Source: Candidatus Hermodarchaeota archaeon (GTDB lineage Archaea; Asgardarchaeota; Hermodarchaeia; Hermodarchaeales; Hermodarchaeaceae). Taken from it: a stretch of DNA of 30,225 nt. The notes under the pieces were generated by a model. That model saw only the letters and a list, made by a program, of their open reading frames with translations, had not been told where the DNA came from and did not search any database. Positions 7,630-22,220 of the stretch are shown here, one piece after another. The first letter of the stretch is position 1. Each line of letters opens with the position of its first letter. The translations under genes were made by a program, and so were the position numbers. The DNA is taken from positions 1 to 30,225 of the forward strand of contig JAEOTO010000048.1 in NCBI GenBank assembly GCA_016839805.1. The letters run 5' to 3'.

Positions 7630-9288
7630 GTGCCTACCAATGATAGCCTTGAACGGCTTTTAGTCAACGGAGAAAACCGGAACACTGAGTTTAAACGAAT
7701 TCTAACTGACCGTGATGCTCTCGGCGACCGAAAGGCGAAACTTATCGCTCAGCTGAAATTAATTACAAGTGAGGGCGAAGGTCAATATGTTATAGGAATT
7801 GAAGATCTACATGGAAAAAACTGGGAAATTTTTGGTCTTACCCCAGAAGAAGTTCAATCAAGTAAAGACGTTCTACAATTACTTTGCGAAGAAGCGGGAA
7901 TCCAAATTCTCGAACAAACTCATTACACCACGGATAAGGGTATCGTAGTTGGTTTCAAAGTCGCTCGTATCATTTCACCAATGGTCCCTGAAACTCTGGG
8001 AGTGAATCTTGTTGGTCGCGTTAACAGTGGCAAAACCACACTAGCAGGAGTCCTCATCCAAGGACAGTTAGATAATGGTAGTGGTCAAGCCCGAGCAGTG
8101 CTACTAACCTATCCTCAAGAACTGAAACGCGGTCAAACAGCGGATCTCCATGTTACATTTGCTGCAATCGATAAAAGTGGGAAATTTATCACAATGAAAG
8201 CCCCCTTGGACAAGGCAAAACGGGCACAAATTTTGGATCGGTCTCACCGAATCATAACGATCTTTGATGCACCTGGACATCGAGAGTACGCTAAAACGAT
8301 GATTCGAAGTGTTCTCGGAGCGTCTGCGCAATATAGCCTGGTACTCATCCCATGTCTTGATGAGTACAAGTTGGTTACTGCCGAAGAACAACGCAGTGGC
8401 ATAACAAGACTGGATGATATTACTCGTGAACACCTGCTTTTAGTATCGAATCAACAGCTTCCTTTCCTTGTTGTGATAAACAAAGTTGATAATTGTAACG
8501 AAGCAATCCGTGATCGAATACAGAATCTTGTTTTTGAAACCATTAAGGAAATTGGACACGTTCCCCTTCGTATTACAGCAGAAGATGACGTGGGGATTAT
8601 TTGTCGTGAAATTGGACACCGTGTTGTGGTCCCTGTCTTTGAGGTTAGTTGTGTTTCAGGGCTAGGACTTGATCGGCTTCGTAATACTTTAGCGAGCCTT
8701 CCCTCACGAATTCCAAATGAGCGGGTTGAAAAACCAGCTCTAGCCTCAATTGATAAAGTGTATCGAGGAATTCGGGGAACGAATGTCGTCATTACAGGAA
8801 CAGTTCAAGAGGGCATCTTCAAACCTGGTCAAAATATCCTATGTGGTCCCGATAAAGATGGCCGATTTATGCGCGGAAAAATTGGGTCCATTGAAGTGTT
8901 CAAGAAACAAGTTGAACGTGTAAAAGCAGGCGATGTTTTCGGATTTGACCTCAAACGCCTTTCGCCAGAGAAAATCCGTAGAGGTCAAATTATCTGTGAT
9001 GAAGATGCAGATGTCAAGGCAGTAAGAGCCTTTGATACAACAATCATTGTTACAAGACACCCAACTAGAATTCGTCCTGGATATGAACCAGTTTTTCATA
9101 GTTCGACAATCCAACAACCAGTAATATTTGAAAAAATTTTTGATAAAGAATATCTTGTTGTTGGTGACGTGGCACGTGTTCGAATGATGTTCAAAAAAGG
9201 ACCTGAAATGCTCCGCGTCGGTGATCGCGTGGTCACCAGAGAAGCAAACACCCGATGCATTGGAACGGTAGTAGCACTTGTACGGTGA
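7630..9288 (+). CDS. GTPBP1/GTPBP2-like translational GTPase (EF-1alpha superfamily, archaeal GPBP)
   Basis: N-terminal GENRNTEFK and GEGQYVIGIED block typical of GTPBP1. G1 GRVNSGKTT, G3 DAPGH, G4 NKVD, G5 SCVSG, followed by EF-Tu-like domains II/III. The stop codon is supplied by the IS right end. Confidence 0.9.
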   Translation: MPTNDSLERLLVNGENRNTEFKRILTDRDALGDRKAKLIAQLKLITSEGEGQYVIGIEDLHGKNWEIFGLTPEEVQSSKDVLQLLCEEAGIQILEQTHYTTDKGIVVGFKVARIISPMVPETLGVNLVGRVNSGKTTLAGVLIQGQLDNGSGQARAVLLTYPQELKRGQTADLHVTFAAIDKSGKFITMKAPLDKAKRAQILDRSHRIITIFDAPGHREYAKTMIRSVLGASAQYSLVLIPCLDEYKLVTAEEQRSGITRLDDITREHLLLVSNQQLPFLVVINKVDNCNEAIRDRIQNLVFETIKEIGHVPLRITAEDDVGIICREIGHRVVVPVFEVSCVSGLGLDRLRNTLASLPSRIPNERVEKPALASIDKVYRGIRGTNVVITGTVQEGIFKPGQNILCGPDKDGRFMRGKIGSIEVFKKQVERVKAGDVFGFDLKRLSPEKIRRGQIICDEDADVKAVRAFDTTIIVTRHPTRIRPGYEPVFHSSTIQQPVIFEKIFDKEYLVVGDVARVRMMFKKGPEMLRVGDRVVTREANTRCIGTVVALVR

Positions 9289-9400
9289 ACTACCCCGCCC
9301 TAAAGGACGGAGCTTCCTGCTTCGACGCTTCAGCCAGCGCTGACAGCTCCACAGGCCCAACCCGAGGTTCCCTCGGTGACATGATGGACAACAGTCCCAT
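9265..9400 (-). ncRNA. Predicted omegaRNA/reRNA (scaffold overlapping the tnpB 3' end, plus flank-derived guide CGUACAAGUGCUACUACCGU)
   Basis: Established TnpB architecture. Scaffold blocks (+ strand GCTTCCTGCTTC, CCACAGGC and a hairpin around GTTCC) are conserved with the element at 21397. The 5' end is approximate. Confidence 0.65.
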
Positions 9401-10575
9401 CATCTTGATATTTAGTGCAGCATTAAGATCTCGATCCAGTAGTAACCCACAGACGGGGCATATCCACGCCCGATCTGACAGCGTGAGCTCATCGTTAAGG
9501 TACCCACAACCATGACAGCGCTTCGATGTCGGCGCAAACCGTCCCACCTCAATCAGGGTTACACCATACCACTCGGCTTTATACCATAACATCCCTAGAA
9601 ACTTATGCCAAGCGGCATCAGCGATCGACTTAGCCAGAATCCGGTTATGCATCATGCCACTAACGTTGAGACTCTCGACTATGATTGCTTGGTTCTCGCG
9701 AATCAATCGCGTCGAAAGCTTATGCTGAAAATCAGTCCGTTGGTTAAAGACGCGTTCATAGCAACGGGCCAGGCGCTGTCGCGCTTTTTCCCGGTTCCGA
9801 CTCCCCTGCGCCTTTTTGCTCAGTCTTCGATGCAGGCATTGAAGACGCTTCAGCGAGTTTTGGAGATATCGCGGATTCTCCACCTTCTCCCCCGTGGACA
9901 ATGTGACATAGGTCGTTAAACCCACATCAATCCCGACCGATGTCTGACTTGTTGCCTGTGGCTTTGGGGGAGGAGATTTTCCGTTTTCTACAACAATCGA
10001 GATGAAGAACTTGCCCGTGATGGTCGAAACGATCGTACACGTTCTGGGCGTACCCGTGAACCGTCGATGGAAGACTGTCTTCACCATCCCAATCTTTGGG
10101 AGGTATACCCGTCGAGTTGAAAAGCTGATTGTGAAGAACTGAGGCACATCAAAGGATTGGCGGTGCGCCTTGCGACGCTTGAACTTTGGGTATCCTGGCT
10201 GTTCCTTGCCTTGTTTGAGGCGACGAAAGAAGTGTTGGAAGGCTAGCTGGACCCTTTTGACTGCCTGTTGCAATGATTGTGAGAAGGCGTCTTTTAGAAA
10301 GGGGTGATCCTGCTTTAGTTCGATAAGGCGGTTGTTCAGGTCGTACCAACTGAGGTTCGTTTCATCCATCTCATGAGCAGTTTTTTTGGTTTCCAGTGCC
10401 CAGTTATAGACGAACCGACAGGCATCGATGGTCTTCCGGATTCGCGCACGTTGTGTTTGATTTGGGTAGAGGCGATACCGGAAGGTTCTGAGCATACCTC
10501 TAGGTTTGGCAACAGAGTATTTGAAGTCCGCAATTCATCCCCACCCTAAAGGACAGGGTCTTCTCGCAGTTTTCG
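9285..10575 (-). mobile_element. IS200/IS605-family element carrying tnpB only (IS1341-like), no tnpA
   Basis: Minus strand left end: TTAT|CGAAAACTGCGAG-AAGA-hairpin CCCTGTCC-TTTA-GGGTGGGG. Right end: GAAG-hairpin CTCCGTCC-TTTA-GGGCGGGG-TAGT-TCAC|. The AAGA/TTAT and GAAG/TCAC pairs fit the IS608-type guide/cleavage-site logic. No TIRs. Visibly more GC-rich than the flanks. Confidence 0.9.
9290..10495 (-). CDS. tnpB: RNA-guided endonuclease TnpB, apparently intact
   Basis: N-terminal FRYRLYPN HTH, GYPKFK, RuvC-I GIDVG, RuvC-II IIVESL, Zn finger CHGC..CPVC and RuvC-III DRDLNAA. All three catalytic acidic residues are present. Confidence 0.96.
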   Translation of the reverse strand: MLRTFRYRLYPNQTQRARIRKTIDACRFVYNWALETKKTAHEMDETNLSWYDLNNRLIELKQDHPFLKDAFSQSLQQAVKRVQLAFQHFFRRLKQGKEQPGYPKFKRRKAHRQSFDVPQFFTISFSTRRVYLPKIGMVKTVFHRRFTGTPRTCTIVSTITGKFFISIVVENGKSPPPKPQATSQTSVGIDVGLTTYVTLSTGEKVENPRYLQNSLKRLQCLHRRLSKKAQGSRNREKARQRLARCYERVFNQRTDFQHKLSTRLIRENQAIIVESLNVSGMMHNRILAKSIADAAWHKFLGMLWYKAEWYGVTLIEVGRFAPTSKRCHGCGYLNDELTLSDRAWICPVCGLLLDRDLNAALNIKMMGLLSIMSPREPRVGPVELSALAEASKQEAPSFRAG

Positions 10576-21244: not shown

Positions 21245-21387
21245 GGAGATTGGGGACTTCTGAATTTACAGTATCAATTCTATAAGGGCATAATAAGATG
21301 ATTAAGATTGTTCTTCATCTTCAACTCAAAAAGCAGAGAAAACATCATTAGCGAAAAAAAATGGAGGATTTGACTCAGTTTGTGGTT

Positions 21388-21617
21388 GTGGAGGCTGTGA
21401 ACTGCCTCGCCTTGAAGAGCGCGGCTTCCTGCTTCATCCCATCGGCTCGAACCGACTGGTCCACAGGCTCTACTCGCCGTTCCGGCGATGTTGCCCGGTC
21501 ACGGTGGTCCTTGGTTCTCGGACCGCGGATCGGGACCTCACCCTTAGCTGTCTAGGAACGGATTTAAACTCCACGATTCATCCTCGTCTTGAAGGGCAGG
21601 GTCTTCTCGTGGAGGCT
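21388..21617. repeat. 9-bp direct repeat GTGGAGGCT at both junctions of the miniature element (21388-21396 and 21609-21617)
   Basis: Read directly from the sequence. Confidence 0.9.
21397..21617 (-). mobile_element. Non-autonomous IS200/IS605-derived miniature element (PATE/MITE-like, 221 bp) retaining an omegaRNA-like scaffold
   Basis: Right end GTGAACTGCCTCGCCTTGAAGAGCGCGGCTTCCTGCTTC aligns with GTGAACTACCCCGCCCTAAAGGACGGAGCTTCCTGCTTC at 9285. Left end ATTCATCCTCGTCTTGAAGGGCAGGGTCTTCTCG..|ATAA aligns with ATTCATCCCCACCCTAAAGGACAGGGTCTTCTCG..|ATAA at 10533-10579. No coding capacity. Confidence 0.88.
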
Positions 21618-21656
21618 ATAAAGGTCCTTGCTATCATATGGGAGAGGTTAAGTGCG

Positions 21657-22220
21657 TTGGCAAGACAGCAAGCTCCGCTTGTAAAAATTTTAGTAGCGGG
21701 GACAAGTCAAGTAGGAAAAACTAGCCTAGTACAATCATATGTTTTCAATGATTTCCTTGATGTATCACCCACTATTGGCATTAACTTTGCACAGAAAGTG
21801 TGTCTTGGCGAGCAGGGCCCATTAAATTTGAGTATATGGGATCTTAGTGGGGAAATGCGGTTTAAGTTTCTAATTCCTCAATTTTGTTCCGGTGCTATCG
21901 GCTTAGTGCTTGTATTTGATCAAGCACGTTCGGATACGCTAAATGCAAGCGCTGAATGGTTGGACTTTATTGGACGTTACGCACATCCTTTCCATAGCAA
22001 AGCCATTGTCCTTGTTGGTGCAAAATCTGACTTAGCCTCCCGAGTACCCTTGCATGAAATCAACACTTTTTGTACAGAACATAAAATTGCAGCTTTTATC
22101 CCATGTTCAGCAAAAACAGGTGCAAATGTTCACCGCGTGTTTGAAAGTCTAACTACTATTATTCAGCGAACCCTACCAGAACTCTCTTCTTCCACTTTTC
22201 CACATCTCGCAGTTTCTTAA
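21657..22220 (+). CDS. Ras/Rab-like small GTPase
   Basis: KILVAGTSQVGKTS (G1), PTIGINF (G2), IWDLSGE (G3), LVLVFD, LVGAKSDL (G4) and CSAKTG (G5). A TTG start at 21657 follows GGAGAGG. The ORF-track extension to 21504 is element sequence. Confidence 0.9.
   Translation: MARQQAPLVKILVAGTSQVGKTSLVQSYVFNDFLDVSPTIGINFAQKVCLGEQGPLNLSIWDLSGEMRFKFLIPQFCSGAIGLVLVFDQARSDTLNASAEWLDFIGRYAHPFHSKAIVLVGAKSDLASRVPLHEINTFCTEHKIAAFIPCSAKTGANVHRVFESLTTIIQRTLPELSSSTFPHLAVS

Follow-up and report, generated by a model that had tools for sequence, protein, structure and literature searches.

Target bases at the left junction of a stand-alone omegaRNA element in Hermodarchaeota are most likely a scar of RNA-guided DNA repair

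The stretch of Hermodarchaeota DNA analyzed here is 30,225 nucleotides long and is referred to as the window. Between a radical SAM gene and a small GTPase gene, it carries a 221-bp element on the minus strand (21397..21617) that has no open reading frame. Copies of this element occur in the same genome and genus, and the orthologous site of close relatives lacks the insertion, which identifies it as an IS200/IS605 mini-element carrying a stand-alone omegaRNA cassette. The genome holds 10 mini copies, and the genus about 25 others. The element contains a left end, its own TATA box, a TnpB omegaRNA, and a TTCAC end. In all mini copies, TTAT is followed by a variable 10-nt start, by GAGAAGA with a hairpin, and by GTGGAG-TTTAAAT; a variable spacer then leads into a structured RNA of 140 nt, the right-end hairpin, and TTCAC. 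An Rfam search of the element gave no match, and a sigma-70 promoter scan was uninformative, the host being an archaeon.

The target motif TTAT (21618..21621, minus strand), which reads as the ATAA of the host TATA box on the plus strand, is the TAM and left cleavage site. Of 40 family copies, 31 have TTAT directly ahead of their left end. The insertion lies downstream of this fixed motif, which stays outside the element, and the empty site was both reconstructed and found in relatives. Subterminal hairpins and guide sequences are the established layout of IS200/IS605 ends (PMC3201880). Both ends of the mini-element have such hairpins; the one at the left, together with its GAGAAGA foot (21582..21608, minus strand), was delimited by alignment of the copies and resembles the right-end hairpin (21424-21405). 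At the 5' foot of the hairpins are 4-nt guide sequences, AAGA on the left (predicted; 21605-21602, minus strand) and GAAG on the right. Their fit to TTAT and TCAC follows the pairing rule of IS608. Further inward, an internal arm, TCGTGGAG, which pairs with the left-end start, and a TTTAAAT box make up the putative omegaRNA promoter (21562..21576, minus strand). This region is 85% identical among copies versus 39% in the spacer that follows. The internal arm (21569-21576) pairs at 8 of 8 positions with the left-end arm (21607-21614), and the outer left-end stem shows weak covariation (P 0.13 for Watson-Crick pairs, 0.02 with G-T). The complementarity between an internal GTGGAG and the left-end start, which the first-pass annotation had pointed out, is therefore real, but GTGGAG adjoins the element's own TATA box throughout the family and is not peculiar to the GTPase site.

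The omegaRNA scaffold (21397..21540, minus strand) ends in the right-end hairpin and TTCAC. It is supported by covariation at 12 of 31 pairs and has the same helix order as the RNA of full tnpB elements, which its model also matches. A 16-nt guide is predicted at 21381..21396 (minus strand) from its position after TTCAC, and this flank agrees with the empty alleles. The element type, the TAM, and the guide position had all been called correctly from the sequence.

The same contig supplies a likely partner, which provides supporting context. A full-length tnpB-only element of the same family (9285..10575, minus strand) has the same TTAT and TTCAC ends, and its open reading frame (9290-10495, 401 amino acids) encodes an ISDra2-like TnpB (PDB 8h1j, E 7e-68) with intact RuvC motifs D190/E274/D356. 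Judged by sequence, this TnpB is likely the nuclease that acts on the mini-element RNA in trans. The RNA model derived from the mini copies matches 9285-9414, the 3' end of the full element (E 6e-22), and the folds of the two RNAs are alike. [quoted passage not shown] The catalytic motifs are kept in both cognate TnpBs of the genome, and no nuclease-dead member of this TnpB family was seen. A Y1 transposase was not found in the 87% complete genome and is present in 1 of 19 genomes of the family. Two pairs of mini-elements from different genomes, L027/L134 and L031/L033, share sites that appear orthologous, which means that some copies are old and have persisted. Several genomes of the genus also share an orthologous tnpB copy (L144, L140, L184, and L185) that has no recognizable left end, lies directly after a tRNA- or tmRNA-like 3' end, and has a conserved guide start, GAAGYGTTTAATCG; it is a candidate immobilized copy.

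On the other side of the element, the gene at 21657..22220 (plus strand) encodes a Rab-like small GTPase of 187 amino acids (Pfam Ras, E 8e-30, and Roc), whose Hermodarchaeota homologues carry the name Rab family GTPase. Its TTG start (21657) is in the same place in orthologues. Exact matches to this protein and to the radical SAM protein were looked up, and none was found. Upstream of 19 orthologous and paralogous GTPase genes, the promoter motif tGTGGAGGCTATAAGGGTCnTTGCAA recurs at a constant distance, and a paralogue that shares it lies at G000 C2:1442. The insertion split this motif at the TATA box, and a 9-nt duplication restored it. The rebuilt host promoter reads GTGGAGGC-TATAAAGG-TCC-TTGC (21609..21633, plus strand), and the junction GTGGAGGC-TATAAAGG lies 40 nt upstream of the TTG start. 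Conservation of the motif supports its assignment as the GTPase promoter, in agreement with the TATA-like box proposed earlier. The displaced upstream half of the promoter now forms the first 9 nt of the guide (21396-21388). The motif (L073-L092 upstream regions) is highly conserved and common to two paralogous Rab-like GTPase families across the genus, and its TTGCAA part may be a regulator site.

The sequence AGCCTCCAC (minus strand) occurs twice, at 21396-21388 directly after TTCAC (21401-21397) and at 21617-21609 directly after TTAT (21621-21618), so the guide does match 9 nt next to the TAM at the left junction, as first noted. The match ends there, and positions 10-16 agree at 3 of 7. 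Relatives at 96% and 89% DNA identity have an empty site with one 9-mer, letter for letter as reconstructed. Because the empty alleles of these close relatives hold a single copy, the insertion is recent and the second 9-mer is a true duplication. The claim that the context is identical before and after insertion holds for the 9 nt but fails beyond them, where a conserved T just upstream of the restored block has been lost. The usual left-end start is 10 nt long (28 of 40 copies; consensus CTAAAnCYnC); in the GTPase-site copy, it is replaced by 9 nt, all of them target (21609..21617, minus strand). No other TTAT plus 9-mer and TTCAC plus 9-mer pair within 2.5 kb exists in the genome, and a match of at least 7 nt between a family left end and a random TTAT flank is expected with p = 1.2e-4 per element. 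The duplication is thus confirmed as real and non-random.

The same departure recurs in other Asgard elements. We used the RNA model to collect 80 further regions from other Asgard genomes, which yielded cases L207, L236, and L224. Altogether, among 62 elements with an intact TTAT from four Asgard families, 6 repeat 7-12 nt of their right flank at the left end, and the other 56 have no target duplication. The matches are 9 nt (window), 8 nt (upstream of tbp on C4 of the same genome), 7 nt (a full tnpB element in G006), 12 nt (L207), 8 nt (L236), and 8 nt (L224), at unrelated sites in five genomes. The longest match among 1,860 mismatched left-end/guide pairings was 5. The binomial P is about 1e-16 with the discovery case counted in (5 of 61 with it left out), for a set in which the 31 left ends from outside Hermodarchaeota were selected visually and related genomes are partly non-independent. 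We left L164 (a TAT repeat), L226 (4 nt), and L230 (11 nt, apart from its TAM) uncounted as ambiguous. The last of these (G056:C5) is a TTAC-TAM tnpB element whose right-flank match lies inside the left end, six bases off the TAM. Across the family, left ends differ in their first 9-10 nt (41% pairwise identity) and do not generally resemble the flank, the two points on which the first-pass annotation had proposed to compare copies; the target copy is confined to a minority. The recurrence is a real, non-random departure from the rule that IS200/IS605 elements insert without duplication, and no account of a target copy at their left junction was found in the literature searched, coverage of which was incomplete.

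Several features indicate that a block of bases was replaced. In five of the six cases, the spacing between TTAT and the hairpin departs from the family norm by 1-2 nt (9, 9, and 8 versus 10; 17 versus 16; 14 versus 15-16; L224 has no norm), as expected of block replacement. Sister left ends finish in TCCAC, TCCGC, or TTCTACGC, the letters of the 3' part of the converted targets. The internal arm is complementary to the target at 5-6 of 6 positions in the three Hermodarchaeota cases, and because it lies outside the replaced block and still complements the target, the microhomology probably existed beforehand. At the window site, it would come from the GTGGAG that the host promoter and the element promoter have in common. 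In the tbp copy, the copied bases are unconserved in relatives, so base-by-base selection cannot explain the block.

We consider it probable, on balance, that the duplication arose by recombination of empty and filled alleles that ended in microhomology, probably during TnpB cut-and-copy repair. Most likely, RNA-guided DNA repair left the duplication behind as a scar, and it did not evolve as a gene switch. The stand-alone omegaRNA element landed in the TATA box, following TTAT, and its original left end would have been a normal 10-nt start, probably finishing in TCCAC like the sister copies. Recombination between the empty and filled alleles would then have stopped in 4-6 nt of microhomology and not at TTAT, so that the first 10 bases of the left end were lost and the first 9 of the target remained in their place. 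The likely driver is TnpB: cleavage of the empty site at 15-21 nt beyond the TAM would leave a target stub on the left arm, and trimming of this stub would stop at the microhomology. Any stub of a length that TnpB could cleave once more would be lost, which would fit the observed range of 7-12 nt, although the 12-nt case counts against this reading, being at the limit reported for cleavage. Such cutting, followed by repair from the filled copy, is described in 10.1101/2023.03.14.532601 and PMC13639567, and TnpB homing would thereby supply the break, the template, and a reason for the stub limit near 12 nt. The product rebuilds the host promoter, which may favor its retention, and its by-product would be a site of TAM plus 9 nt that TnpB could bind without cutting. 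A scar of this kind may also explain the high variability of left-end starts. The dependence on TnpB is our inference, as ordinary gene conversion would yield the same product. Recurrent excision is likewise an assumption, because no Y1 transposase was found in the 87% complete genome and it is rare in the family. A filled allele with an unconverted left end, the expected intermediate, was not found at any of the six sites.

The same block replacement could have taken place without TnpB: an empty allele could have been the donor in ordinary gene conversion, or the template could have switched locally between the two similar ends, which are 221 bp apart, and the product would have been kept because it rescued a TATA box. 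We regard this as unlikely. The two ends are 74% alike over 23 nt, and the three Hermodarchaeota cases all lie 39-57 nt upstream of a divergent gene, the G006 one in a TTTATAAG box 49 nt upstream of its gene. Insertions are also biased toward TATA boxes, with an A after TTAT in 22 of 40 versus 15% genome-wide (P 6e-9). Single C-to-A changes that restore TATAA were found as well (L029 and L051), and all six A-starting, TTAT-intact Hermodarchaeota left ends have an A-starting flank, five of them 30-57 nt before a divergent gene. This agreement suggests promoter rescue by point change or block copy. However, L224 and L236 rebuild no TATA box, and the GTPase is broken or deleted in relatives: in the 96% relative, it has a premature stop at codon 26 (L262 and L266), and in H03M_Hermod_104 (L150:2325-2329), a relative whose neighboring protein is 91% identical, the promoter and most of the gene are deleted (window 21297-22111). 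Rescue is therefore a contributing filter at most and may be weak at the GTPase site. Replacement without TnpB also leaves the upper limit near 12 nt unaccounted for, and the duplication is seen in none of five guide-less solo ends, too few to decide.

The first-pass annotation had suggested that TnpB loaded with this RNA could repress the GTPase promoter. An RNA-guided switch under selection, in which nuclease-active TnpB and omegaRNA sit on the BRE/TATA of the GTPase (and tbp) promoter, would place the TAM and 9-nt seed exactly over a conserved promoter block, as they are. It would also agree with a scaffold core that is 91% conserved while the ends drift, and with an 8 of 9 match at the paralogous GTPase promoter. 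With a 10-nt guide, a TnpB that recognizes a TTAT TAM binds its target but leaves it uncut (PMC13507860), and oppF-TldR repressors use natural 9-nt guides on an adjacent promoter (Wiegand et al., 10.1101/2023.11.30.569447). Binding without cutting is thus plausible, but nothing points to selection for repression. The insertion is missing from all relatives, including the one at 96% identity; sister lineages have broken or lost the GTPase; the tbp copy has decayed to 8 nt; and both TnpBs keep their nuclease motifs. Guides of the other copies have only chance-level TTAT-anchored matches, and a genome-wide search for trans targets of 15 guides gave only chance-level matches of 6-9 nt and no regulatory network. 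We judge a selected switch improbable. The related idea that TnpB shields its own left end found no support, and auto-repression of the omegaRNA promoter is unlikely, as its TATA box is about 50 nt from the TAM.

The second earlier suggestion, that the transposase picked the site by extra pairing of the left end, taken here to include a duplication made at insertion, is very improbable. The internal arm does complement target positions 4-9 in the converted copies, and engineered IS608 can be retargeted by extra pairing (PMC5934647). In that element, however, the extra pairing sits upstream of the TAM and not downstream, and the family shows no such signal: in 37 unconverted copies, the internal arm pairs with the target no better than chance (P 0.06-0.58; P 0.52 in the IS608 geometry). 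Single-strand insertion, even with pairing, would not duplicate the target, and the loss of 10 left-end bases is left unaccounted for. Least credible of all is an artifact of assembly or polishing from mixed empty and filled alleles, or chance. Every source is a metagenome assembly, and consensus polishing could overwrite a few bases up to microhomology. Nevertheless, the 9-nt form is indirectly supported by a separate Logan contig (SRR14699983) that begins within the element: going by its coordinates, an open frame of 248 amino acids runs through the junction, precisely the length that this form alone predicts. In the tbp and G006 copies, the sequence deviates from the flank right after or within the block; six cases occur in five genomes, and chance is excluded. 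A DDE-type MITE with a fixed 9-bp duplication was also rejected, given that the 221-bp element has no terminal inverted repeats, most copies have no duplication, and the lengths range from 7 to 12.

The Asgard elements resemble IS200/IS605 tnpB-only (IS1341-type) elements, PATEs, and ISDra2 TnpB in having the TAM outside the left end, subterminal hairpins, and a TTCAC right end, as well as a guide taken from the right flank and a TnpB with the RuvC triad. They differ in that IS200/IS605 elements are described as inserting without target duplication, whereas here a minority have 7-12 nt of target in place of left-end bases. Stand-alone omegaRNAs, as far as Altae-Tran 2021 is summarized in PMC10691335, are likewise mobile, protein-free, and found beside effector-bearing copies in the same genome; unlike those in that summary, the Asgard element has a TATA box of its own following the left end, and 2 of 10 genome copies place a seed target over a host promoter at their own left junction. 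As in TnpB cut-and-copy homing, the guide matches the empty donor joint, and repair from the filled allele would reinstall the element. The homing papers describe reinstallation as the outcome, and a target partly kept at the left end was not found in the passages searched. The likeness to oppF-TldR is a 9-nt match beside a TAM, over a promoter adjoining the RNA locus. TldR, however, is nuclease-dead, immobile, and conserved with its target, whereas the Asgard genome pairs an intact TnpB with a recent, lineage-specific element that is missing from orthologous GTPase and tbp loci. The match is short because of mismatches in the Asgard case and because of a short guide in TldR.

Homing by TnpB has been shown in the laboratory, and precise repair leaves genomes unmarked. 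If a repair scar is the correct reading, then a target stub at the left end would be a countable natural footprint of homing and an exception to the no-duplication rule. A bind-but-not-cut TnpB site on the GTPase promoter is plausible, by analogy, as a by-product of the scar, and TnpB could plausibly occupy the promoter, provided that both partners are expressed, because TAM plus a 9-nt match should permit binding without cutting. As TTAT is half of an archaeal TATA box, TTAT elements often land in promoters, where the scar would rebuild the promoter and create a site of TAM plus 8-9 nt beside a guide gene, arranged as in oppF-TldR; a simple reporter could then test how RNA-guided repressors originate. 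A bolder proposal, which we advance as speculation and think unlikely, is that imprecise homing routinely writes sub-cleavage target copies that, in a TATA box, rebuild the promoter and put it under bind-only guide control. Intact TnpB would then already repress tbp and a Rab-like GTPase in Asgard archaea, and short-guide, TldR-type repressors would arise by this route.

Three further observations concern the ends and promoters. Upstream of tbp (L004:1448-1510, G000 C4), four TTTATAA-type boxes within 60 bp are conserved in the genus, possibly for TBP self-regulation. Solo elements of about 46 bp (G000 C19:8530-8575, C39:4235-4280, C29:649-695, and C45:7723-7768; L038:305-351) consist of the left-end start fused to the right-end finish via one shared hairpin, without the omegaRNA, and likely come from recombination between the two hairpins. 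Lastly, in family copies, the unconverted left-end start and TAM form a near inverted repeat of the internal GTGGAG-TTTAAATA (window 21562-21621). Read outwards, the unconverted end is GTGGA-TTTAG-ATAA, a possible substitute promoter, and in several copies a C-to-T change yields TTAAATAA.
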